A stretch of DNA of 64,000 nucleotides, from positions 1 through 64,000 of IMG/VR virus record IMGVR_UViG_3300045999_010887. One strand, 5' to 3'. How positions within the stretch are numbered: the first letter of the stretch is position 1; each line of letters begins with the position of its first letter. The notes beneath the pieces were generated by a model. The model was given only the letters and a program-made list of their open reading frames with translations. It was not told the origin of the DNA and made no database searches. Made by a program: the position numbers and the translations under genes. Source of the stretch: a virus. Below, piece after piece: positions 39,797-64,000 of the stretch.

Positions 39797-41185
39797 TTAA
39801 TCGTTATTTACTGTTTGTAGTAGTTTGAGTAACACTTTATTTTCATCCGCATTTTTTTGGTAATACTGCCAGTTGTCATAGACTACCTCTAGTAACACTT
39901 CAAAGAATTCATTACCATTCAAAACGTTAGTGTCAACAAATTCACTGACGGTATCAGCTAGGTATTCCCGCAGGCGTTCTTTTGCTTTTGCTTTGGACTC
40001 TTGGAAAAAGTCCGACCATTTATCTGTGGGTGCTTTTAGAACATTAGCTTCTGGTTTGAAGTTTGCTTTGATGTAATCAGAAGTTGCTTTGTCAGATTCA
40101 CGCCGCATTTTGGTAGTACCAAATTCCTCAAAGGCTTCTTTGTAAAGGACATCAAGATTGTCTAGTTGGTTGCTCTGTGCCAAGGTAGGAAGCAAGATCT
40201 GTAACAGCTTGATGATAGCCTTGCAACCACTCGTCGGAAACCTGTTGTTTACATTTGGGATTATTTCTATCTGTTACGTAACAGATGTAAGTAACATCAA
40301 GGTGCCTAAGCGCAGCTACAGCATGTTGCTCATTCATAAAAAAAGGGATACTTAATCTTTAAGCATCCCTTTATTCTAAGTTGTAATAAAAGTTACATTC
40401 TTAAGAAAGAATAACTTCTTGTCCTTCAAACTTGCCCGCTTCCAGGTCTTTAACAAATTCAACACGCCGGAAGTATTCATCCCGGCAATAAGGACCTGCT
40501 TCTGTCAGGCAAAAGTTTTGCCACAGCCCAGTGTATAGACCATTGGTACGAGCAGAGCACTGGTACATATGTTCCATAAAGTCTGCTTTCTTTTGCTCAG
40601 CAGTAACGTTCCAGTTCCGAAGCTGCTCTTTTAGCCAGGGCGTATCAAAAGCACCTGCAGTGCGGAGTTTTTTGGCAAGGTCGTCAGTCATTGAAGTTAA
40701 CGGCTGTTGTAGAAGTATAGACACCTTTGACGCTGGGGCTGAGCTCAAATAACAAATCATCAAGATCGTCTTGAAGAGCCTCTGCAATTTCTTCGGCAGT
40801 CTTGCCGCCAAAGGAATTGTATTCAACGTCAATGTCAACCGCAAAAGATACGGTTAACCTTGGCACAACAACAGGTTCCATTTAATCCAAAGAAGACCTC
40901 AATACTGTAGCAGTAATTTTATTGAGTTCAGAGGAGTCGCTCTAATGATTGGAACTTGACACTTTCGTAATAACCAAGGCGTTCTTGAATTAGGTTGTAA
41001 TAATTAATAGCAGCATCAACCATTTCTTCTGCATCCATAGAAGATGCAAGGTTTTCATTTGCAAGCATGGATGCTGTCAAGATAATGACACCATGTTCCA
41101 TTTTGGAACCAGTGATTGCAGCTAACGGCGTTCCATCATTGGTAAACCCAGCAATCAATTTATTTAAGACTGGATCACCGCCCAT
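39797..41185 (-). CDS. Five small hypothetical ORFs (39797-40195, 40152-40337, 40401-~40690, 40684-40881, 40928-41185)
   Basis: Co-oriented ORFs; terminator-like hairpin at 40338-40372. Confidence 0.55.
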
Positions 41186-41241: not shown

Positions 41242-42135
41242 ATGTTTGATAAAGCAAAGGCTTTACTTGCTACTTTAGCTGCTAAACGACACAAAGAAGT
41301 TGTAGGCCAAGGCGCTTTTGGTGTTGTATATGCAGACGCTCCTGGAACAGTCGTTAAAAAAATTGCAGGTGAAACACCAGAAAAAATTTTAAACGAAATT
41401 AATTTACAAGCAAAAGCAGCAGAGCTTAACATTGCACCAACTTTAAAAACAGCTCAAATAAATCCGTCTGGACCTGATGTTGGTGGATCAATTACGATGC
41501 AAGATTTAAGAAAAAACTATGTTCGTTTAGGTGAGCCTGTTGCTGATATGCCTTATCCCCGTGAAGGTGTTGTAGAAATTGCTGGTGAAGGATACAATTC
41601 TTATGACCCAAGTTTGAATAGCGCGCAAATAACTCAAGCAAAAGTAAATACACATAAACAATTGGCTCAGCTTGCTTTAAATAATGTAATGCTTGAAGAC
41701 AGGCATGTTGGAAATATTTTTGTAAACAAAATGAGCAATAGACCAATGCAGATTGATTTTGGTTTAGCAACTGAGATTAAAACACCTAGTCAAAAAGCTG
41801 GTGCTTTGGCGTACCATGTTGGGAATGGTTTGAATGCAGCAGGTTTAAACGAAGAAGCCAGACTGTTTAGTCAACTTGTTAATGAGGTAGGTCAGTTTAA
41901 TATTATGACAAATGCATACGACAATCCAGAAGCAGCACTGGATATGGCTAAACAAGGTTTGTCACGCCTTCAAAAAATCAAAACACCTCAAATAGAACAA
42001 ATTTCTGCTGTAAGACAAAAAGAATTAGAGAGCATGAGAAAAACATCTTTACTTTTGGAACAAACTCCTGCGCAACAAAGGCTTAATACTTTTGGAGAGC
42101 CAATAGAAAAGGGGTACTATGGTACCCCTGTCTAG
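41242..42135 (+). CDS. Protein kinase-like protein
   Basis: GQGAFGVVY, VVKK, E, DRHVGN, IDFG. Confidence 0.8.
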   Translation: MFDKAKALLATLAAKRHKEVVGQGAFGVVYADAPGTVVKKIAGETPEKILNEINLQAKAAELNIAPTLKTAQINPSGPDVGGSITMQDLRKNYVRLGEPVADMPYPREGVVEIAGEGYNSYDPSLNSAQITQAKVNTHKQLAQLALNNVMLEDRHVGNIFVNKMSNRPMQIDFGLATEIKTPSQKAGALAYHVGNGLNAAGLNEEARLFSQLVNEVGQFNIMTNAYDNPEAALDMAKQGLSRLQKIKTPQIEQISAVRQKELESMRKTSLLLEQTPAQQRLNTFGEPIEKGYYGTPV

Positions 42136-43243: not shown

Positions 43244-43271
43244 TGGTCAGTTTACCGTCATGACCAGGACG
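43244..43271 (-). ncRNA. Family A pseudoknot, copy 1
   Basis: CGTC-CTGGTCAT-GACG-GTAAAC-TGACCA. Confidence 0.7.
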
Positions 43272-46612: not shown

Positions 46613-46640
46613 TGAGCAGTTTAACGTCATGCTTAGGACG
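46613..46640 (-). ncRNA. Family A pseudoknot, copy 2
   Basis: CGTC-CTAAGCAT-GACG-TTAAAC-TGCTCA. Confidence 0.7.
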
Positions 46641-47725: not shown

Positions 47726-47755
47726 GAGGCAGTTTAACGTCTTACCTCAAGGACG
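47726..47755 (-). ncRNA. Family A pseudoknot, copy 3
   Basis: CGTC-CTTGAGGTAA-GACG-TTAAAC-TGCCTC. Confidence 0.7.
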
Positions 47756-53011: not shown

Positions 53012-54490
53012 GTGCTGCACCTGAGGAAGTAATGCCAATTGTTAGTGGGATCAGTGTACCTGATTACGTTGCAGTTTTTGTAAGTGTCAATGACTTCAAA
53101 GTTTGATTTGCCTTCAGTTTTATCTGATGACAAAAAGATTGAAGCCAACAAACCAGTAGCTGCAAACGCAAGGATTGTTACACAACAACCACGGAGGAAA
53201 TGAATCTGTTGTTCAGTCATGATTCCCATGGTAGAAAGTCAAGTGTTCTTCGCAAGGTCAAAGCATCTTCGTCAGTAACACAATTGCCCTCAACAAGACA
53301 TTCAATAATTTCTCGTACTTGATTTTTCAAGTTTGACAGCTTGACACGGCGAGCATTGCGTAACTCTCGTCCATAGCTAGGACAAGGAAGACTGAGCCAT
53401 TCACAACATGCATCCAACTCTTGATCAGCCCCCCAAAGAGCCGCTTGCGTGCACATATATTTTTCACGATTCATGTGTTTTACTTTTGCTTTATACCATT
53501 CATCAGACCATTGGAAAACAAGGCCTTCAGAAGGTAGTGCAATTGGATGCTCTTGAGTCATGTTATTCACCAGGGACAATGACTTCTTTCATCAGGCGTT
53601 GAAGCTCTGATGCTGGACAGATACGCATCGTAGCGTGTTCTCTTGGTGATGACAGATGATCCCACTGGATCACCAAGAACTTTTGCTTACGTCCTAGCCT
53701 GTTTGGTTTTTCAATGATGTCAAGTACATGACCGTACCGCTGACTGCGGTACTGTTGAATCCGTTCTTTAACTTCATTGCGTACAGCAAAAATCCCATGA
53801 ACCTTGGGACGTTCTGCTACACGATCACCAATGGCATAAGTGAATTGACGTTTGGTTGTCATTTGATGTTGGAATAAGTTTTGTAATTGACAATGCGTGA
53901 GATTGTGCTGCGGTTAGTGTCATAGCGTATAGCTATCTGACCGTTGCTTAATCCCTTCTGATGTAAATGACGAATCATTAATACATCTTTGTCTGTCAAA
54001 AAAGAATTACCATTTCTAGTACCTGTTGGCTTGTAGGGCACCAATGGAACTGGCTTTGCAATTTCGTAACGTTCTACTGTACGAAACTTAGCGCCGCAAT
54101 CAAGACAGCGACAATAACGTTTGGTTACTTCAGATCCTATATGTTCAGTGCAGGTAACACGTGTGTTACTACTGTTACATGTTCTGCATTTCATTGTGTG
54201 AAGTGAGGTTCAATGAATCAAGAATGAATACAGTTTCTTCTTTGCCAACAAGATTAAATGAATCTTTGATTAACTTGTGGCCAGGAGCTTCTGTATAAAA
54301 TTGTTGAAGCAGCTGTTCAGCTGTTTCAAATGCATCGGGTTTACCAGTCAGTTGAATCATGACATCTGATGTCATGTTATCTAGCATTTGTTGAATGACT
54401 TGATAACGAACATCAGGCCATGCTTCATCTGGTATGCAATCAGCAATAAGTTCTGTTACATCATGATAGATAATTGATTTGAAGACCATG
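53008..54490 (-). CDS. Five small ORFs, including an NrdR-like Zn ribbon-HTH protein (53859-54194)
   Basis: MKCRTCNSSNTRV...RYCRCLDCGAKFRTVE. Confidence 0.55.
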
Positions 54491-54519
54491 AAGAAAAGAC
54501 CCCTGCATGTGCAGGGGCC
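54491..54519 (-). terminator. Intrinsic terminator
   Basis: CCCCTGCA-CA-TGCAGGGG then TCTTTTCTT. Confidence 0.7.
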
Positions 54520-54537
54520 GAACATTCCGCTGTGATT

Positions 54538-54900
54538 TTAAGCAGTTTGGGCGTTGGTGTCTACCGCCTGGTCCATCAGGCCTGACTCTTTGAGTCGATC
54601 CAGCATGCCGCACATGATGGTGGCATGGGCATGGGTTTGTTCCATGAACATGCGCGCCCGCTCTGCCGACATGGTATGGACACGGCCGGAGGGTTCCACA
54701 TAACGCCAGCTGCCATCAGGCTGGGGATCACCTTGGAGGGCAAGACGTTCTGAGTTATGAACGTACCTGAGCTCGAGGTTGTAATGGTCCTTAAGGCCGT
54801 CAGCCGCTGTCCAGGTTGCTCCAAGGTTGTAACGCTGTTCTTCATCAGAGTAAGCGTGGAACTCAGGGATAAGATTTTTGAAAGCAGCAAAGAGTTGCAT
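54538..54900 (-). CDS. Hypothetical protein
   Basis: Probable start MQLFAAF just downstream of tRNA-Leu. Confidence 0.6.
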   Translation of the reverse strand: MQLFAAFKNLIPEFHAYSDEEQRYNLGATWTAADGLKDHYNLELRYVHNSERLALQGDPQPDGSWRYVEPSGRVHTMSAERARMFMEQTHAHATIMCGMLDRLKESGLMDQAVDTNAQTA

Positions 54901-54921
54901 GATGTTGTGTTGAGTGTAGGT

Positions 54922-55008
54922 TGGTGCAGACGGCGGGAGTCGAACCCGCAAGGGCAAATGCCCGACGCATTTTAAGTGCGTTACGTATACCTATTCCGTC
55001 ACGTCTGC
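54922..55008 (-). tRNA. tRNA-Leu(UAA), intron-less, CCA encoded
   Basis: Acceptor GCAGACG/CGTCTGC, anticodon ACGCA-CTTAAAA-TGCGT, long variable arm, GGTTCGACTCC. Confidence 0.95.
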
Positions 55009-55218
55009 ATCACTTGGACTTACACTCACATCAATTGATGTGTGATGCCAAGTGTGATCATGAGGTAACGGCTCAGTGCCGTAGTCCCATGTATCATAGT
55101 CATCCTCGTTACGAGGATCCTTATCGATCAGGATGTACTGAGGTGAGTTATCTGTGATGTACTCACCAATGTTTGCCATTGCCATGGCAAGCAATTGATC
55201 ATCAGTGTAATCGGGCAT
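54991..55218 (-). CDS. Small acidic protein
   Basis: Reads through element B into the tRNA D arm. Confidence 0.5.
   Translation of the reverse strand: MPDYTDDQLLAMAMANIGEYITDNSPQYILIDKDPRNEDDYDTWDYGTEPLPHDHTWHHTSIDVSVSPSDADVTE
55011..55054 (-). ncRNA. Family B element, copy 1
   Basis: CACTTGG-CAT-[stem]-TGTAAGT-CCAAGTG, 2 nt before the tRNA. Confidence 0.7.
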
Positions 55219-55267
55219 GAGTTAAAGGGCATCCATATAACGAGGATAGGATGCCCCTGCTGTGGCC

Positions 55268-56992
55268 TTAGCTTTCAGATCTTAGCTGTTTCTCACGAGA
55301 TTGCAAGGCCTGCTTGAAGGCAAGTGCGTACTCTTCCCTTTGCTCCTCGTTCAGTCGCTGGTTGGCTACGCCAGCAATCTGCTTGACGTTCATGACACCC
55401 ATGGATACATCCAGTTGAATGGTGAAGGTTGGCCTACCATCAATCATGCAAAGCACAATGAAGTGCTTACGTTTCTTGATGTCTTCTGCATACTGGGACG
55501 CAGAGCCCACACAGTTGCGGACTGCTTGTCCCCACTGTGCAAGTTGATGCGTATCAATGGGTTGCAGGAATGTCCAGCTATGGCCATTCATCTCTACATG
55601 CACAGGTGCAGGGAATAGATCCTGGTGCAGTGACTCCTTCTTGTTCTGAATCTTCCATGCCTCTGCTTGCACATAGTCATGGAAGTCAGGCATGCGCCAA
55701 CGCTTTGGTGGCTCAAGTGTTTTACCTGCCTCAAGGATACGCATGATCATTGAGAAGGTATCGTTCATCTCATACCATGAATGAACAAAATAGTTGTAAT
55801 CAGAATGGATTAAAGAACGAGCTGACGCAGACTTCTCTTCATTAGATTTTTCAGAATACTTACGCATCATATTGAGGAACGATGTAACACTCATGTGCTC
55901 ACGTAGCCAAACAATGAGTTCATCACTGGTACGCAAGTGATTGAGATTGACTTGACGTAACTCAGCAAAGTATGTACGGTAATGATCAAGCGGACAGTCG
56001 GGCCATACTCGATTGATAAAGTAGATTGAATTAGTCGTCTGCTCAAATTCTTTGTAACCATACTTAATTGCTTTACGCAATTCGTTATCAACATTGTTGT
56101 ACTGTTCAACAGAGCGATCAAGCATTGTTTGCAAACGCTTCTTGATAAATGGAGTTGTAATGATGTGCTGAATATCGTTGATGGTTAGATAGGTTAAAGA
56201 TGTGTAATTATTCTTAGCTGTCCATGCATTAGCAAGGTCAACTATATTGTCAACCGTTAACTTGAATACTGAACGATCTTCGATGCAGTTTGTTAATGCA
56301 AATGGAAACTCAAGTGCATCAAGAAGGTTATTACATTTGATGCGATCAAACATGGAATGACTGTCGTTCCATGTTGGGATAGTTTCCATCAAAGTTGACT
56401 CAAAACTATTGATTGCATCATTCATATCACGTGACTTCTGGTAGTAACTAGCAATACCCATGGCACGCCAATTACGTGCATCATTACCTGCAATGATGTC
56501 TTGCTTAGTTATGGTACGTGAGTACGTAAAGGTTTGCGCGCCACGTGTACTGGCGTGTTCGGTGCAACGATCTTTAGTATTCCAGATATGACGAGGTAGT
56601 ACCTTAGCTGCAGCTGCAGTGTTCTTGAATGCATAGGCATAGCCATAGATGTAGTCCTCACCTTTGGCAGGTAGCCATGCGGCATACCAGCATTGCTCAA
56701 AGTGATAGAGGATTGCAATGGTAATTGTACGTGCTTGTGGTGTGGCAACATCAACCACCTTGGTAAAGCGATGGTAACGTTCTGATACACCTGACGAATT
56801 GATACGATCAATTGCATCTTGTTGATAGCTACCACGCACCACATTCTCAGGGATGAGATGTGGGATATTACCCAATGGATATTTAGCTTTCTTTGTAGTC
56901 TTCTTGGGTTCCTGTTCTTTGACCAAAGCCTTAAGCTTTGGATCATAAGCCAAGAGTTCTTGTTGCAGGCAAGAGGGAATTTGGAAGTGCAT
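55268..56992 (-). CDS. PcfJ-domain protein
   Basis: FHDY...L..WGQAVRNCVGS..Y...FTIQL...VKQI.G.AN. Confidence 0.75.
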   Translation of the reverse strand: MHFQIPSCLQQELLAYDPKLKALVKEQEPKKTTKKAKYPLGNIPHLIPENVVRGSYQQDAIDRINSSGVSERYHRFTKVVDVATPQARTITIAILYHFEQCWYAAWLPAKGEDYIYGYAYAFKNTAAAAKVLPRHIWNTKDRCTEHASTRGAQTFTYSRTITKQDIIAGNDARNWRAMGIASYYQKSRDMNDAINSFESTLMETIPTWNDSHSMFDRIKCNNLLDALEFPFALTNCIEDRSVFKLTVDNIVDLANAWTAKNNYTSLTYLTINDIQHIITTPFIKKRLQTMLDRSVEQYNNVDNELRKAIKYGYKEFEQTTNSIYFINRVWPDCPLDHYRTYFAELRQVNLNHLRTSDELIVWLREHMSVTSFLNMMRKYSEKSNEEKSASARSLIHSDYNYFVHSWYEMNDTFSMIMRILEAGKTLEPPKRWRMPDFHDYVQAEAWKIQNKKESLHQDLFPAPVHVEMNGHSWTFLQPIDTHQLAQWGQAVRNCVGSASQYAEDIKKRKHFIVLCMIDGRPTFTIQLDVSMGVMNVKQIAGVANQRLNEEQREEYALAFKQALQSREKQLRSES

Positions 56993-57022
56993 GAGTTGAA
57001 TTGATTGAGTAGGTACTGAAAA

Positions 57023-57054
57023 GCCTGGGACTTACACCTTACGGATGCCCAGGC
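57023..57054 (-). ncRNA. Family B element, copy 2
   Basis: GCCTGGG-CAT-CC-GTAA-GG-TGTAAGT-CCCAGGC. Confidence 0.75.
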
Positions 57055-57067
57055 ATGATGTCAAACG

Positions 57068-57495
57068 TTAGTCAAGTTCGACCAGTTGCCACTGAGGATC
57101 GAGCTGATCAAGATAGGCGCAGAAGCCATCTTCATCAAGAGGAAATGGTTCCTCTGGATCCAGCTCGACAGTTGTTGTACACAATGCAGGAGCCCACTCT
57201 TCAGGGTCGAGGCGAGTCGCCCGATAGAGCAGGCGCATTTCGTCAACAACTGCTGTAACTGTGACATGAGTATCAGTGAAATGAGTGTCTTCAATGGCTA
57301 AGACTGTCATCAGTTGTCCTCGATGTAGGAACAGTTGGTGGTTTTGATGAGGCGGTACTTCATCCACAGACGTGCTGTGTCGTACTCGCCATTGAAGCGT
57401 GCTTCATCTAACACATTTGAATTCGCCCTGCGCTGTGCACAGGCAGCAAGATTAATGCGATCAAACATGTTGATGTAGTCTGTGTATGTAGCCAT
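57068..57495 (-). CDS. Two small ORFs (57068-57310, 57310-57495)
   Basis: TGATG coupling. Confidence 0.55.
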
Positions 57496-57527
57496 GAATT
57501 GAAATGAGTTGAGGTAATGGACAAAAG

Positions 57528-57555
57528 CTGGGACTTACACCTTACGGATGCCCAG
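57528..57555 (-). ncRNA. Family B element, copy 3
   Basis: CTGGG-CAT-CC-GTAA-GG-TGTAAGT-CCCAG. Confidence 0.75.
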
Positions 57556-57559
57556 ATCT

Positions 57560-57969
57560 TTAGATTATCTTAATGTTTGATTTGCTCAAACCTGTGCCTG
57601 GGATACTGATTGATCCACGCACACCAGACTCACGTGCATTGAGTGTGAGTTGGAACGGTCCAAGCTGAAACGATTTGCTATAGGATTGAATACCATTTTC
57701 TGTGATATTGAATCCAGCAATGGTCTTATCAAAGCTGATTGGTGATTTGTCTTTAGTCATTTCAAGTTCTCGGGCATTAGTTGATTGATGTCATCTTCAT
57801 CTTCAAAATTTGTCATTACAAACTTTTGTCCATCGGGGGCAACAAAGCCCCCGATAAAACCAATACCGTATTTGTCTGCTGATTCTTTCATCTTGGCTAC
57901 AAGCTGCATAGCTTGAAGTCTTTGAAGATCAATTGAATCAGGAATACGAGGAGTGTTGGAACTAGACAT
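57560..57969 (-). CDS. Two small ORFs (57560-57760 DUF4236-like; 57757-57969)
   Basis: GVRGSISIPGTGLS in the first. Confidence 0.5.
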
Positions 57970-58107
57970 TGGTGTTGAGTTGATTGGTGGTCTAGAAGAC
58001 TTGGGTAGTCTACCAGGGTTGTCAAGGGATGGTAAAGGGGGAATACATAATAGTTTCTTATAGAACTAAAGGTATCCCCCTGGTACTTCCCCAGGGGTTG
58101 TAGGGGA

Positions 58108-58554
58108 CTACGAATGCATAGCCTGGTGCTCCTGCCAAGCAGCTGCGTGCATTTCTGCTGCAGTGATTGGAGGTTCACCTGGTTCGTTCGGAGTTGGGTC
58201 GTAGTCGAGTTCTTCTTCCAGCATGGAGATCATTTCTTCGACTAGACCCTTGGCATGTGGTGTAAGGTGTTCATCCATTTCATGGCGCTTGCTCTCGCGA
58301 GCTTGCACATTCTTTAAGATGGAGTGAACTTCTGCAAGGTAGTAATACTCGTTCTGTTGTGCGTAATACATCCGTAATAATGCTTGAATTTCAGATGCAA
58401 CCTTGGGGCCAGCTTGATGAAGTGATTGAATGCGGTACAAACCAAAGTCCAAGATCGCTTGAATAGTTTGTAGTTGTGCACGCATCAAAATGTTCCTCGC
58501 CCTGGTACCAAGGCAAGGACAATCAAGCACTGATGTTTCTGGTTTTAAATGCAT
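58108..58554 (-). CDS. Protein with an RNA polymerase alpha-CTD-like domain
   Basis: LGTRARNILMRAQLQTIQAIL....IQSLHQAGPKVASEI. Confidence 0.6.
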   Translation of the reverse strand: MHLKPETSVLDCPCLGTRARNILMRAQLQTIQAILDFGLYRIQSLHQAGPKVASEIQALLRMYYAQQNEYYYLAEVHSILKNVQARESKRHEMDEHLTPHAKGLVEEMISMLEEELDYDPTPNEPGEPPITAAEMHAAAWQEHQAMHS

Positions 58555-58582
58555 GGTTGGTTTGGAGTTAAGGTTGGATTAA

Positions 58583-58624
58583 AGCCTGGGACTTACACCA
58601 CATTGTTATGTGGACGCCCAGGCT
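58583..58624 (-). ncRNA. Family B element, copy 4
   Basis: AGCCTGGG-CGT-CCACAT-AACA-ATGTGG-TGTAAGT-CCCAGGCT. Confidence 0.75.
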
Positions 58625-58687
58625 ATGACTGAAGTATTGGCATGTATTGGCACTTTGTACGTGCCACCCAATACTACGGTATAACGA

Positions 58688-59595
58688 TTACGTTGTCTTA
58701 GGTTCGAGCATGATCCAGCCTGTGTAGTTAGCACTGCTGCGATCAATGGTTACTAAGCCGTGTTCCTCCAGTCTTGTCAATGCTGTGAGGTATTGATCAA
58801 GCCTAGAGTTTTGGACGGGACACCTTGGTACGTAACACGGTGTGTTCTTGTACTTCTTCCTGTGGTTCAGGTAGTACAAGTAGATGTTCCGTTGATTGAT
58901 GCTCAATCCGACTGGCGGTGTCAGCGTTGATGTTGCCGTTGTCATCAGCAGTAATGTGGAGTTGATTCGGGGTAGACAGTAGCGTATCCGTTGGAGAAGT
59001 TGACTTCGTAGTTGTGGTACGTCGTCGAGAGACCGAGGCTTGGCTGGTCTGCGACTTCGTACTCGTCGAAGTATTGGATGAAGGCTTGGACCGCTTGCTT
59101 CTTGGAGAAGACACAGTGGGTGAGGACTGGGAGTCCTGCTTGGTACCACCATCCGCCTTCTTCTGGACCGCCGTAGTGGAGCGTCGTTTCGTGGACGGTG
59201 ACAGTCGTTGGGTCTTCATGCTCCCACTGTTGGTGGGTTGTGTATCGCTGGATGGCAAAACGTGCTTTCCAGGAGTTGGGGTAGAACTTTTGGAGTTCAG
59301 AGATGTAAGACATTTGATTGCATCAATGAAAGTTGTGATGAGAATTGAAATGATGACAATGATGTGAACAACAATGTCATCTTCGTGTTGCTTAGGCTTG
59401 GTCATCGTAAAGCTCCTGTTCTTGGTTAGGTGTATTAGTCACAGAGAAACCGACGAATTGTCCGTCGATTTCAATGAGTGACCATTCGGATTGATCAGCT
59501 TCACGCATGGCTTCTTCTAGTTCGTATGCACGATCAGCCATTGCGTCAAGCAAGTCTGCATTGCGCTGCTCATCAATGAAGCTAAAATCTTTCAT
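58688..59595 (-). CDS. Small ORFs (58688-58945, 58945-59313, 59392-59595)
   Basis: Coupled ORFs; YGGPEEGGWWY motif in 58945-59313. Confidence 0.55.
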
Positions 59596-59623
59596 GGTTT
59601 GAGTTGAATAAATGAACAGTTGT

Positions 59624-59675
59624 CCTGGGACTTACACCACTTATTGAGAAGAGTTCTCAAGAGTGGAGGCCCAGG
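59624..59675 (-). ncRNA. Family B element, copy 5
   Basis: CCTGGG-CCT-CCACT..AGTGG-TGTAAGT-CCCAGG. Confidence 0.75.
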
Positions 59676-59685
59676 TGATGTGTGA

Positions 59686-60192
59686 TTAGGCTTTGATGTC
59701 GCTCCAAGCAATACCGCGAGCGATATTACTGATTGCGCAGCCTGTCACGTTGTAACGGCGACCAATAGCTTGGTACGCCTGAGTTTTGCTTGTCCACCCA
59801 CCCATGTACTTCTCATCGTTGATGAGCAGTTTGATTTCACGTACTTGGCTGGGTGTAAGCTTAGGTACAGGACCGCGATAACGTAGATGTGTAGTACCAG
59901 AAGCACCAACAGGTTTGAACTGTGTTGTGGTCTTGGTCTCTTTCCTATCACGTTCTGCAAGTTCCTTTAGATAAGCCAAGCCCTGTTCCTTGGACATGAC
60001 AGGACCATTCATCCGTCCCCGTGACGGTTGCATGGGGGGTTGAGGGGGTGTCTCGATCCATGGACTGCGGATAGGAAAGCCAAGCGTTACTGACGTTCCA
60101 TCCTTGAGGATGGAGATGGTGACCTTACCATCCCTTGTAATCACAGAGACGTGATCGGGGGCGGTCACATCGAGTTGGCTGAGCGCGTCCAT
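59686..60192 (-). CDS. Protein with a C-terminal HTH
   Basis: KLTPSQVREIK...AIGRRYNVTGCAISNIARG..W. Confidence 0.65.
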   Translation of the reverse strand: MDALSQLDVTAPDHVSVITRDGKVTISILKDGTSVTLGFPIRSPWIETPPQPPMQPSRGRMNGPVMSKEQGLAYLKELAERDRKETKTTTQFKPVGASGTTHLRYRGPVPKLTPSQVREIKLLINDEKYMGGWTSKTQAYQAIGRRYNVTGCAISNIARGIAWSDIKA

Positions 60193-60330
60193 GAGTGATG
60201 TACTGGAGTTTGAGTGGACTGTTGGGTGAGCTGCCCCTGCCTTGCAGGATGCAGGTAGAGAATAGCTGGTACGTACAGAGATGCAAGTACCAGCCGTAGC
60301 GCTTTGCGTTTGCGGGACACCAGATGTAGG

Positions 60331-61019
60331 TTAGTCGTGTGGGATAAAGTCCGAGTCGTTGAGTAGCTGATGAACTGACAAGCAGTCTTCAGCGATCTCA
60401 TCTCTGGTGCAACCTTCCCATTCGATGGACTGGTCTTCAATGACTTCACAGCCAGCATCTTCGAGCTGGTCGTGGAATTGAGACCAAGTACGTGCGTTGC
60501 CCCAGACATGGGCATAACGACCGGAATGATCAGCGACTAGTGCGATGTGGAGTGCCATTGTTCTGTTGAGTAGGGTTGGAGTTGATGTTAGTGATGTCAA
60601 TGCCGATCAGTGCAGGCACTGTGAATGCGGCAATGATGAGGGCAAAGAGAGCAATGCCGTACGACCAAAGTTGATTTGAGCGAGTCTCAGTAGACTCACC
60701 ATAAGAATCAAGGATGATGTACTTGCCTTTGCCCATGGAATAGATGGTCTTCATCTTAGATCGTGGCAAGAATGTAACGGACGCAAACCAGATGATCTGG
60801 CTTGAAACCAGGCGGTAGTTCTTCTGCGTAGAACCACTCGCCCTTGACATCAAGCGAGACGCATTCGCTGTTTCGTGCAAAGCCAAGAGCTTTATCACCC
60901 TTGGTGCACCAAACAATGTAGACGCATGCGTCCATGCAAAGGATGTAATAATCATCCTGCTTGATATCAAACGTTTCAAGTGCGTCTTGAATGTCTGAAT
61001 GATCAAATGTAATTGGCAT
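60331..61019 (-). CDS. Small ORFs (60331-60558, 60530-~60736 membrane, 60756-61019)
   Basis: ORF track. Confidence 0.5.
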
Positions 61020-61103
61020 AGTGTTGTATGCAATGGATGCAGGGAAAACCCTGCAGAAAACCCACTCATCACAAGGATGAGAAGGGTTAAGTGCAGAGGT
61101 CAG
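61020..61103 (-). ncRNA. Family D switch element, copy 1
   Basis: CTCTGCA..hairpin..TGCAGGG-TTTT-CCCTGCA. Confidence 0.55.
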
Positions 61104-61510
61104 TTAACGTACTTACTGTTGATGCAGTAATACGTATCACCAAGGAATCCCTTGGTGTAGATCAGGTTGTGCCCTGGTTGGTTATGGCATGTGTTCTTGT
61201 AATGCTCATTGAGCATCTTCTGTCCACAGACGGACAGGATCATGCCAATACCAGTGCCAACAACGATGGCGATAACAGAGTCAGCCAGATGATTGTTAGT
61301 CATGATTCAGATGTCTTTCTTGGGAGTGATAACAAATGCCATGTCATCAGGCATCATGAGTGCAGCAGCACGACAACGAATGTCATGCAGCTTCTCTGAT
61401 GCATTAACCGATTGACATGTCTTGGTAGCAACCTTTGCTGTAGTCTTGGTTGCAGTTACTACCCAAGGCAGGAATTCACGTACGTTCTTCCTGAAATTAA
61501 GTGCAGTCAT
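61100..61510 (-). CDS. Two 67-aa ORFs
   Basis: 61100-61303 (TM helix) and 61307-61510. Confidence 0.55.
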
Positions 61511-61583
61511 GGCATTGAGTTGAGTGGAAGCAGGATATAGAATCCTGCAGTAAAGGGCCGAAGCCCCTTAGAGCAGGAATCAG
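61511..61583 (-). ncRNA. Family D switch element, copy 2
   Basis: TCCTGC..GGGC-TTCG-GCCC..GCAGGA-TTCTATA-TCCTGC. Confidence 0.55.
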
Positions 61584-63213
61584 AAGATCGTTGCGTAAAG
61601 ATTGTCGAGGTGCATCGTGGTAATGTACTGATAGTAATCAGACATTGCAGCTAATAACTCCTTGGTACCAGCAGGAATACCGTTACCAAGAGTTTGTACC
61701 TCACGTTCAATCCAACAAGGATTGCCATAGCAGTCATCAACTTCTACTTCATAACGAAGCATAGTTGATTCACCGCCATGCCAAGTGATACGCTCGGTTG
61801 CACCTTCGTAAGGGTAGTAGCACAGCATAGTGTTGTGTTGAGTAGATGCCACGGGATTGTGGCAAGTGTTGTGTGGGGGATTTGATCCCCCGGCATCACG
61901 CCTGGTCAGAAGACCATCACAACGTCGTCGGCCTCCATCATCTCCTCGAAGGACATGATGCGCACGTCATGCGTGCCTTGTATGCCGTTGTTAAGTTCGG
62001 GTGCATTGAGCTCGAAGTCGCATTGAGCTGCTTCGATTAGCGCCTCTTCCCACTGGAAGGAAACGCCATGTTGCACGCCGTCAATCACAATGAAGTACAT
62101 GGTGTTGAGTTAAGTAGATGCCACGAGATTGTGGCAAGTCTGAACCAGGGGATTGCACCCTGGAACGCCGCTTAAACGGACTCAGATAGCGTAACCGTTG
62201 GTGATGCACCAGTTACGGTGAAGCGTGTCATGCTCCTTCGGCCAGTCATGTGTAATGCACTGGTGAGCCGTTGCCTTGTCCACAAAATGGATGACGACTT
62301 GGCTACCAATGCCCATGATGGAAGCAGCAATGAGCACGCAGGATGCAATACGTTGAGTCATGATTGCGTTGAGTAGATGCCACGGGATTGTGGCAAGTCT
62401 GATGCCGGGAATTGAACCCGGCTGCGCACCAGCTATCAGAAAGGATGATAGTCGACTACCAGAAGATCTTGCTCCCAATCCTCAAAGGATTGGAAGTATT
62501 CAAGAGCTTCTTGCTCGTTGTCAAACACCTTCTCACATCCCTGGAAGTAGGCGTCTTCGAATGTGTAGTCAGCGTAAACAGCAAAAGGATTACGCTTAAC
62601 TTGAACGGAGTAATACATGTTGAGTTGAGTAGATGCCACGGGATTGTGGCAATAACTGGACCAGGGTTTGCACCTGGTCACCCGCTTTAACGGATCAGCT
62701 AACTTCGTAAATTGCCCATGACATTGAGTCATAAACCTTCCTGGCGATTTCGCCATTCGGATCGTTAACCTCAATGAAACGGTCAACTATTTCAGCCATG
62801 CAGATTTCATGGCTGACCATTCTCTGACAACAATCTTCAATTGCTGCCTCACGAAGTGAGATCAGCACTTCAAGAGTGTGCGCAAGAGCTTGGTCCACAG
62901 GATTCTCCTGTTGTGTGGTGCCCATCTCCACAGGGGGCAATAACTGTGGGAGGGTTTGCACCTCCCAACCCGCTTTAACGGATCAGTTGTTCTCCAGCAT
63001 CTCGTCCACGTAGGACTTGATAACCTGGAGGTGTTCGGCAGTAAGTACCTGGCTACGGCCATACTCAAGCAGGTCAAGGACCTGGAGCATGACTTGATCG
63101 CCAGCTTCCTGCCGGGTCGGTACGCCACACATATCGAAGATCTCTTCGCATGACATCTCAGTGATGTCAACGCAGTCGATCTGACGAACGGTGGCGATGG
63201 TGGTGTTGGTCAC
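61580..63213 (-). CDS. Six small ORFs of the array (61580-61828, 61906-62100, 62182-62361, 62436-62618, 62695-62898, 62983-63213)
   Basis: 59-82 aa, unrelated to each other, mostly acidic. Each start directly follows an element. Confidence 0.65.
61829..62986 (-). repeat. Array of five family C tRNA-like elements alternating with small ORFs
   Basis: Elements at 61829-61926, 62101-62186, 62362-62440, 62619-62701 and 62919-62988. Shared TTGCCACAATCCCGTGGCATCTACT in four copies (one substitution in the 62101 copy). Confidence 0.85.
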
Positions 63214-63228
63214 GGTGTACTCCGGTAG

Positions 63229-63262
63229 CTTGGACTTACACCACTGAAGTGTGGATGCCAAG
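63229..63262 (-). ncRNA. Family B element, copy 6
   Basis: CTTGG-CAT-CCAC-ACTTCA-GTGG-TGTAAGT-CCAAG. Confidence 0.75.
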
Positions 63263-63293
63263 AACACCTGGTGACCTACCACCTGAGTTGTCT

Positions 63294-63318
63294 GCTACGT
63301 TTAACGTCCAGCTCGACG
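63294..63318 (-). ncRNA. Family A pseudoknot, copy 5
   Basis: CGTC-GAGCTG-GACG-TTAAAC-GTAGC. Confidence 0.6.
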
Positions 63319-63521
63319 ATTACACTGCTTAAATCCCGACCTTTAACATCGGGATTAACCAAGTCTTGTATTACTCACTGTCCTATTTGGCCCGTGGGGG
63401 AGCGTAGCGCCACATCCAACCGAAATGTCAGGAAATGTTGACAATTGAGAGGATAATGAGTGGAAGACTCACTAAATGAGGGCTATATAAACCCCTGGTC
63501 GCCCAGGGGAAGAGATAACCG

Positions 63522-63842
63522 TCAATCGAAGCAGGTTGCTTCTATAACGAAGCTAAGATCTTTGGGTCTGCGTGTGATAAACACTCGCCATTGACGGATG
63601 TCAACGCTACCTTCGCTGCTGGTGTCATAGCTGTTAGCGTACAACTCTTGTTGAGCAAGCTCAAGCTCGTAGATGTACAGATAACTAAGCAACTTATCCA
63701 TCAAACGCTTCGGACTAATGTCCGCAGCTTTGAAGAATCCTGGTGCTAATGTCACCTTCTTGCCGTTAGCAAGTGCAGCAACTGCGCACTCGCAACGGTA
63801 GTCAACTTCGTAAGCGCTGATCGTAGCAATGAATGTTGCCAT
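63522..63842 (-). CDS. Hypothetical protein
   Basis: Probable start MATFIA. Confidence 0.5.
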   Translation of the reverse strand: MATFIATISAYEVDYRCECAVAALANGKKVTLAPGFFKAADISPKRLMDKLLSYLYIYELELAQQELYANSYDTSSEGSVDIRQWRVFITRRPKDLSFVIEATCFD

Positions 63843-64000
63843 TGTGCTGAATACAGTGGAACTCTGCGTTAGTACGGATGCGCAGCCCCCGTTACTTATC
63901 AACCTCCTTCTTTTTTTCTATCCGGTATCTCTCTCGGTTGGGGTGTTGGAGAAGAGTCAGGTAATTTTGTACCCTTTTCAGGGATATATGCGCCCGTTTT

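Follow-up and report, generated by a model that had tools for sequence, protein, structure and literature searches.

A conserved internal-loop hairpin at the seams of picocyanobacterial phage transcripts, tentatively read as an RNA boundary module

Where a virus reads many small genes from one strand, what marks the point at which one RNA unit ends and the next begins? The question is raised by a stretch of 64,000 nucleotides (positions 1 to 64,000 of the IMG/VR virus record IMGVR_UViG_3300045999_010887, hereafter the window), in which a run of small co-directional genes occupies 54.9-64 kb of the minus strand and a short hairpin with a nearly constant internal loop, here called Family B, recurs six times. 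The complete record, of 80,654 bp, is related to Synechococcus phage S-EIV1 (structural protein 76% identical, 574-aa PcfJ-like protein 42% identical) and encodes a family A DNA polymerase, a primase-polymerase/D5 protein, ThyX, SSB, a terminase and structural proteins. We find that Family B is an uncatalogued and widespread structured RNA motif, with well-supported anatomy and context, and we tentatively propose that it acts at transcript ends.

All copies share one layout: an outer helix of 5-6 bp closing on GG/CC, then C-N-U as a 3-nt strand leading into a distal hairpin of no fixed length, and on the return side 7 nt that read UGUAAGU throughout the window. The distal hairpin ranges from CC-GUAA-GG, that is, two base pairs capped by a GUAA loop, to about 13 bp. 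A structural pattern search of the whole record returned six copies, all on the minus (coding) strand, and a covariance model built from relatives recovered exactly these six across the whole genome (34.5-47.3 bits, E-values 2.5e-6 to 8.6e-10), with no further copy on the opposite strand. Allowing at most one mismatch, GGACTTACACC has 6 matches against 0.74 expected (0/100 shuffles). Predicted folds match both helices; they clearly beat shuffled sequences in four copies and less so in the two shortest, which combine the 5-6 bp outer helix with a distal helix of 2 bp. The original prediction, made from the letters of the window, had placed six such stems on this strand, with distal hairpins of two base pairs upward, five of them shortly before a start codon and one abutting a tRNA. 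This description was borne out by both searches, with the five gaps spanning 15-31 nt and the tRNA lying 3 nt away (Table 1).

The structural case becomes much stronger once relatives are included, for which the collection comprised 25 related loci along with over 200 found by pattern. Across 72 sequences pairing holds in 96% of helix cells, where shuffles reach 83%, and the covariation score is 0.325 against 0.087; slid controls of this test collapse, and 119 distinct covariance-model matches give the same picture. In a flank test unbiased by the search pattern, the first and second pairs beyond GG/CC are formed in 100% and 93% of 61 unique instances, through GC, UA, AU and CG, and outer helices span CUGG to UUCCGGG, AGUUGGG, GCAAGGG and AAAGG. 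The covariation first suspected from the contrast of CCUGGG/CCCAGG with CUUGG/CCAAG is therefore real. Between these freely variable helices lies a junction of about 11 invariant and 5 near-invariant nucleotides, whose invariant core is GGC in the 5' strand and, in the 3' strand, UAAG together with CC. The 7-nt strand, which had been taken to be invariant as a whole, is so in its UAAG, but its first two positions and its last vary: among 119 sequences position 1 is U in 114 and otherwise C or G, position 2 is G or A, and position 7 is C in 4, with variants such as CGUAAGU, GGUAAGU and UAUAAGU. Distal loops vary as well (GUAA, UUAC, UUCG and others). Columns 11 and 78 are ruled out as a regular pair, being U.U in 101 of 117 sequences, and the idea that the loop GUAAGU pairs with a leader ACUUAC was dropped, such complementarity occurring in only 6 of 65 leaders.

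The strand on which the element is read can also be specified. Distal hairpin stability favours sense over antisense by 33 to 15, the G.U count is 19 versus 9, and the copies always lie on the same strand as the flanking genes. Because both helices covary, and because of this G.U asymmetry and the strict coding-strand orientation, the data support a structured single-stranded element read on the sense strand, in agreement with the earlier proposal that the motif works as RNA or single-stranded DNA and not as a double-stranded operator.

Position is the second constant of the family. Family B is always found inside co-directional arrays, with a same-strand open reading frame (ORF) downstream in 95 cases, and no genuine convergent junction carrying it was found among the loci surveyed. 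The distance from the preceding stop codon to the hairpin is usually 2-10 nt (medians of 3-10 nt over unique instances). What follows varies. In S-EIV1-like phages the ATG comes after 24-31 nt (interquartile range 27-30, median 28-29), behind a leader that is nearly G-free, rich in YUCAA and devoid of a Shine-Dalgarno (SD) sequence, and the U content at +1 to +4 after the helix is 44-56%. Nineteen unique copies end 2-7 nt before a tRNA; among relatives, unrelated tRNA-Leu sequences stand behind the same hairpin, and a tRNA-Asn does so in another lineage. Where identical hairpins share a flank, it is the upstream one in 14 pairs and the downstream one in 2, counts drawn from pairs that are not independent, and identical hairpins are also found between unrelated flanks. 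The common denominator is a seam within one transcript, from a translated ORF to the next RNA unit, whether a leader with its ORF, a tRNA or an array of guide RNAs.

At the tRNA seam of the window, the 75-aa ORF 54991-55218 (minus strand) that contains copy 6 has its stop 18 nt inside the tRNA-Leu gene, so that RNase P cleavage would leave its message stop-less. The coding sequence of its S-EIV1 homologue stops just past the hairpin, with no tRNA after it.

To delimit the family, two pattern scans of IMG/VR were made, each returning at least 119 contigs; the first used a bare 14-mer, for which many chance matches are expected, and the full motif was present in 53 of 119 loci among the matches listed. 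Viral contigs with Family B number in the hundreds and represent at least three cyanophage lineages; mobile elements carry it too, no protein being shared, and this distribution fits either a host enzyme or a self-contained fold. The cultured phage S-EIV1 carries it in annotated intergenic gaps, with copies at 40726-40787 and 41436-41478 of KJ410740, which makes the motif directly testable. Relatives of S-CBWM1 have a single copy 46-51 nt before the major capsid gene, which has a normal SD sequence, and in a siphovirus lineage the closest isolates are the cyanosiphoviruses S-CBS1 and S-CBS3. Neither isolate S-CBWM1 nor isolate S-CBS3 yielded a copy and S-CBS1 gave a weak match only, while megablast and blastn searches of isolated phages with the region and with the 34-nt element returned nothing useful. 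In cells the motif is nearly missing: none of 185,579 species genomes contains its exact tetraloop form, the gapped pattern gave 8 matches in cellular genomes of which 7 lack the structure, and the covariance model found 2 matches in 151 Cyanobiaceae genomes, both in mobile elements. A chromosomal match lies just past a tyrosine integrase gene and another just before a NikA-like gene; in a Prochlorococcus-type mobile element the hairpin stands 30 nt from the start codon. This near-absence from the cellular genomes searched rules out a host origin, and the motif belongs to picocyanobacterial phages and mobile elements, not to their hosts.

Such a range bears on the function first suggested, a recognition site for a protein or nuclease coordinating early genes. 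The sequence-specific loop does look like a protein or nuclease site, or else a tertiary core. That it coordinates early genes is not borne out, the module also standing before the major capsid gene, tRNAs and guide-RNA arrays, and in mobile elements bearing an integrase or NikA.

Some further contigs carry the motif in other surroundings. The AT-rich, jumbo-size viral contig L314 (IMGVR_UViG_3300010213_000001, 244.7 kb) contains the minimal form twice, as identical copies (AAAGG...CCUUU) near 523 and 1196, within a 673-nt tandem duplication; these place the motif outside the three lineages identified. Three large unrelated contigs (L081, L325 and L336) share a second box, ATAGATTAGCCTTGCGCTCTTTGTCTTCC-like, 60-110 nt past the hairpin or its tRNA.

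In the siphovirus lineage the single copy follows a gene of 164-196 aa, or the UAA of the loop is itself the stop of that gene, and 0-3 nt past the hairpin there begin GGY/NN pentamer repeats, arranged in three units that each have a structured hairpin tail. By sequence, these tracts appear to match the guide RNAs (vrRNAs) of VIPR systems (preprint 10.64898/2026.04.26.720920). Of the seams in such a locus, the hairpin occupies just the one from the ORF to the leading guide RNA and is missing from those that separate one guide RNA from the next; other VIPR types have hammerhead ribozymes between neighbouring vrRNAs (same preprint). The upstream gene belongs to PHROG 4652 and is annotated 'head-tail joining' in S-CBS1 and S-CBS3. 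A low-confidence structural model of its product (pLDDT 57) has only Csm3/Cas7 RAMPs as top PDB matches, and the protein may be a Vipr-type RAMP instead of a structural protein. The genome of the phage studied here contains no GGY/NN tracts and no RAMP-like gene; since the hairpin is present in this and other phages without VIPR, it does not depend on that system. Other 5-nt periodic tracts (CCGCA/YCGCN), at L082:3086-3200 and L121:3308-3420, lie downstream of single Family B copies; they may be guide RNAs that belong to a different VIPR type or are read from the opposite strand.

A second structure can take the place of Family B. Family B fills the junction of a small ORF with the PcfJ-like gene in this phage, whereas in every relative a compact pseudoknot lies there, equally far from the ATG. 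This element, Family A, is of the H type (CGUC-loop-GACG-(U/G)UAAAC-partner of loop). It also occurs in the window, where its loop-tail helix covaries, and lies about 30 nt before SD-less starts, that of ssb among them. Family A includes GACGUUAAACU, an exact match to 11 nt of GUCCGAAGACGUUAAACUAC, the Xrn1-resistant motif of coremin; coremin, or xrRNA-C, is an exoribonuclease-resistant RNA of plant viruses that blocks Xrn1 (PMC6546385, PMC10520033). Elsewhere in the same gene run (61840-62990, minus strand), a box of about 30 nt, ACTTGCCACAATCCCGTGGCATCTACTCAAC, is repeated ahead of several small ORFs, and each box is preceded by a T-arm-like hairpin with a 7-nt loop (UGCAAAC, UUCAAUU or AUCAAAU); one of these hairpins, at 62398-62440, has a weak mascRNA-like match in Rfam.

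Table 1. Coordinates of Family B copies and associated features (positions in the window unless a locus or accession is named)
Feature	Coordinates	Strand	Composition	Score	Context
Family B copy 1	63229..63262	-	CUUGG/CCAAG, CAU, distal CCAC-loop-GUGG, UGUAAGU	38.6 bits, E 1.9e-7	15 nt before GTG start with GGAG; in 260-nt non-coding stretch, downstream of terminator-like hairpin
Family B copy 2	59624..59675	-	CCUGGG/CCCAGG, CCU, distal ~13 bp with mismatches, UGUAAGU	37.1 bits, z -3.8	begins 10 nt past stop; ends 28 nt before ATG
Family B copy 3	58585..58622	-	CCUGGG/CCCAGG, CGU, distal 6 bp, UGUAAGU	43.6 bits, z -4.0	begins 65 nt past stop; ends 30 nt before ATG
Family B copy 4	57527..57556	-	minimal form: CUGGG/CCCAG, CAU, CC-GUAA-GG, UGUAAGU	45.1 bits	begins 3 nt past stop; ends 31 nt before ATG
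Family B copy 5	57024..57053	-	minimal form, CCUGGG/CCCAGG	47.3 bits	begins 7 nt past stop; ends 31 nt before ATG of 574-aa PcfJ-like gene
Family B copy 6	55012..55053	-	ACUUGG/CCAAGU, CAU, distal 8 bp, UGUAAGU	34.5 bits	within last codons of ORF 54991-55218; ends 3 nt before tRNA-Leu(UAA)
tRNA-Leu(UAA)	54922..55008	-		58 bits (cmscan)	mature 5' end 3 nt past copy 6
SD-less leader	56993..57023	-	G-poor, YUCAA repeats		copy 5 to next start
Equivalent SD-less leaders	57496-57526, 58555-58584, 59596-59623	-
Family A, window copies	43249-43259, 46618-46628, 47731-47741, 63298-63308	-
Family A, relatives	loci L126-L152				just upstream of PcfJ-like gene
GGY/NN arrays	L018:3380-3745; also L007, L029, L045, L093, L111, L123, L293-L335	- (L018)			cyanosiphovirus contigs
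PHROG 4652 gene	L018:3784-4371; S-CBS1 gp02 (NC_016164 2174-2740); S-CBS3 gp02	- (L018)	164-196 aa

What, then, does the hairpin do at these seams? As it always stands at the end of one RNA unit and the start of the next, it most likely marks and shields RNA ends. We favour, with a confidence that falls somewhat short of an even chance, a boundary module that defines transcript ends and protects them against exonucleases. Family B would be a cis-acting module within the long co-directional transcripts of picocyanobacterial phages and mobile elements. These transcripts would be cut into units by RNase P at a tRNA, by guide-RNA maturation, or by RNase E in a single-stranded U-rich leader; the hairpin would remain at the new end, and exonucleases would be halted at the seam. 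Its invariant core (GGC / R-UAAG-U-CC) would provide a special fold or a docking site for a host factor. In the version we prefer, the hairpin would be a 3' cap for the upstream message, as its proximity to stop codons, its co-inheritance with the upstream flank and its tRNA and vrRNA contexts suggest. Alternatively it could be a 5' cap shielding the downstream message from RNase J, which is favoured by the substitution of the coremin-like knot and the constant spacing to the AUG. Cyanobacteria possess both RNase E and the 5'-3' exonuclease RNase J, and strong 5' structure resists decay that depends on the 5' end (PMC8682795).

Several points weigh against this proposal. Cleavage and protection are pure inference on our part, as are the partner and the direction of action, and the evidence on a 3' or a 5' cap points both ways. 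A plain GC-rich hairpin already blocks many exonucleases, so that the model alone leaves the invariant loop unexplained; a core that simple stability does not account for implies a specific fold or partner. The minimal copy, with 7-8 bp in total, has a modest predicted stability (-7.8 kcal/mol, z -0.85). Finally, the narrow spacing of 24-31 nt to the AUG could reflect a role in translation.

Such a role, which we regard as improbable, would have the hairpin or pseudoknot set the 5' edge of an unstructured SD-less leader, either aiding the loading of 30S subunits or S1 as a standby site or insulator, or nucleating a repressor on the leader in the way the T4 gene 32 pseudoknot does. The spacing to the ATG is indeed narrow (interquartile range 27-30 nt in S-EIV1-like phages, 30 nt in the Prochlorococcus-type mobile element), the leaders have YUCAA repeats, hardly any G and no SD sequence, and the pseudoknot lies equally far from the ATG at the orthologous junction. 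However, many copies have no near downstream ORF, being followed by a tRNA, a vrRNA array or more than 100 nt of non-coding sequence, those at the capsid gene lie 46-51 nt from a start with a normal SD sequence, and the spacing could result from genome compaction combined with keeping a stable hairpin outside the 30S footprint. We give little credence to the idea that the downstream RNA is released by a cut at or beside the hairpin, whether the element is itself a new self-cleaving ribozyme of very small size or is recognised by a dedicated endonuclease. About 11 invariant and 5 near-invariant nucleotides between freely variable helices do resemble a small ribozyme, the distribution is specific to phages and mobile elements, and VIPR hammerheads hold a comparable position at guide-RNA boundaries, as Family B does beside phage tRNAs. 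Yet the minimal form amounts to 28-30 nt with one internal loop, and we know of no natural self-cleaver as small; Rfam reveals no hammerhead, twister, pistol, hatchet or HDV signature, and there is no second strand or pseudoknot to form an active site, loop-leader complementarity being limited to the 6 of 65 leaders mentioned above. A broader conjecture, unlikely though worth stating, joins the two structures: Family B and the coremin-like pseudoknot might be the equivalent, in the bacterial world, of the exoribonuclease-resistant RNAs of viruses, or else a minimal self-cleaving ribozyme of a new kind, and in either case a protein-independent fold of 30 nt with which cyanophages and mobile elements cut or wall off RNA units, including tRNAs and VIPR guide RNAs.

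Other explanations move the action to DNA or to transcription. A folded single-stranded DNA recombination site of the attC kind, or the border of a mobile palindromic cassette (REP-, MITE- or PeSL-like), might shuffle small gene cassettes; we hold this to be as doubtful as the ribozyme. In build the element is attC-like, its conserved basal helix being followed by unpaired bases, then by a second helix and a terminal structure that varies, and it stands just past stops; near-identical hairpins lie between unrelated flanks with mosaic breakpoints just downstream, one chromosomal copy follows a tyrosine integrase gene, and Families A and B are swapped between the same two genes. Nevertheless, this genome lacks a PF00589 integrase and the copies lack the R'/R'' boxes of attC. 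Whereas attC works from its bottom strand, the G.U counts here point to the sense, mRNA-like strand. A DNA-level role hardly accounts for so strict a placement before the 5' ends of tRNAs and vrRNAs, and recombination at a conserved intergenic sequence can be a by-product of homology. It is still less credible that the hairpin acts on transcription from the nascent RNA, as a leaky terminator or attenuator or as a put- or nut-like modifier of host RNA polymerase. The location past stops, the short U-rich stretch in S-EIV1-like phages (44-56% U at +1 to +4), the GNRA-like GUAA in the loop, and a host-group-restricted spread without a shared phage protein, which would suit an RNA acting on host polymerase, would all be compatible with this. 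Against these stand the lack of a U tract in other lineages, the absence of copies at convergent operon ends, and a terminator scan that does not pick Family B sites; moreover, six copies in 8 kb are unlike put or nut, and the copy 3 nt before a tRNA needs read-through. A promoter, finally, seems to us barely conceivable. In phage N4, transcription from early promoters begins just past a DNA hairpin, and the mature 5' ends of tRNAs and vrRNAs 0-7 nt past Family B could likewise belong to RNAs starting there, from an N4-like hairpin promoter or a box for modified host polymerase. But no phage RNA polymerase was found among the proteins of the genome, the conserved halves of the motif lie 8 to more than 70 nt apart, copies overlap coding sequence and a stop codon, and there is no sigma-70-like enrichment at them, a promoter scan giving 11 sites against 14.9 expected, none of them at a Family B copy.

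If the boundary reading is correct, the long transcripts of picocyanobacterial viruses are punctuated by one portable module of 30 nt, its core common to unrelated phage lineages. This would provide a handle on the control of message stability in SD-less, Rho-less cyanobacterial systems and would show how phage tRNAs and VIPR guide RNAs are separated from neighbouring mRNAs. It would also be a test of whether exonuclease-resistant RNA folds, so far a theme of eukaryotic viruses, occur in phages. The size of the module suits an insulator part in cyanobacterial synthetic biology.

Comparison with described families sets Family B apart from most of those considered. As the original prediction had anticipated, no catalogued family was matched: a cmscan of 54000-64000 against Rfam 15, on both strands and with E up to 10, passes only the tRNA, with no match overlapping the six copies, and literature searches on UGUAAGU and TGTAAGTCC retrieved unrelated matches only. 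The closest small motifs are similar in letters. The UGUAA of Family B may correspond to the U-N-N-R-A turn of a T-loop, in which U1 and A5 are invariant; here A5 never varies, and U takes position 1 in 114 of 119 sequences. The resemblance, noted already in the original prediction, fits the letters of G-UGUAA-GU-C, but by covariation the would-be closing G and C have other partners: G pairs with column 12 (CG 95, UA 18, UG 4) and C with an outer-helix G in 119 of 119, so that a tRNA-type T-arm closure is rejected. UAAG opposite xAU recalls the 11-nt tetraloop receptor, CCUAAG/UAUGG; relative to the T-loop and this receptor, Family B has two extra nucleotides and inverted flanking pairs. A kink-turn, with its 3-nt bulge and tandem sheared G.A / A.G pairs, does not fit, the short strand (C, then A, G, C or U, then U) having no GA and the long strand having AA where GA is required, and loop E, UAA/GAN and tRNA-minihelix readings are ruled out by letters and covariation.

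Among elements of similar location, the RNase III hairpins R0.3-R1.3 of T7 also carry an asymmetric internal loop and lie between cistrons of a phage polycistronic mRNA, in their case an early one, where the cut leaves a stabilising hairpin. A site of that type needs about two helical turns, for which a minimal Family B of 7-8 bp is too short, and the Family B loop is invariant across unrelated phages of a cyanobacterial host. An intrinsic terminator is rejected, given no U tract outside one lineage, no hit in the terminator scan and no copy at convergent junctions. REP elements are likewise short, structured and located just past stops within operons, and can block 3' exonucleases; REP and MITE elements, however, keep their whole sequence and occur in either orientation, whereas Family B keeps its junction core only and is strictly oriented with the coding strand. 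PeSL cassettes of T4-type phages, reportedly repeated intergenic modules beside small early genes and at mosaic breakpoints, resemble Family B in repetition and placement but are said to contain a sigma-70 early promoter, which no Family B copy has. Integron attC sites, which follow cassette ORFs, likewise join a conserved basal helix to unpaired bases and a terminal structure that varies; they require R''/R' boxes (RYYYAAC / GTTRRRY), an integrase and the bottom strand, and are excluded by a CUGGG/CCCAG-like outer helix, the missing PF00589 and the sense-strand G.U bias.

Two comparisons remain closest to the proposed function. Known small self-cleaving ribozyme classes are rejected for want of an Rfam match to their class-specific cores. 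The hammerheads of VIPR loci nonetheless resemble Family B in their boundary position beside GGY/NN guide RNAs; Family B differs in having no hammerhead core, in being confined to the seam between ORF and first guide RNA, and in occurring in phages without VIPR. Identity with coremin/xrRNA-C is likewise rejected, as Family B has neither the YGAD (or YGNNAD) loop nor the GUUAAACUAC spacer and its single strand is N-R-UAAGU. Coremin comprises two hairpins (hp1 and hp2) and Family B one nested hairpin, and in place of Xrn1 Family B would need to block a bacterial enzyme, either RNase J or a 3' exonuclease. In general design the two are nevertheless alike, each a tiny viral module that combines a short hairpin and its closing helix with a conserved single strand rich in A.

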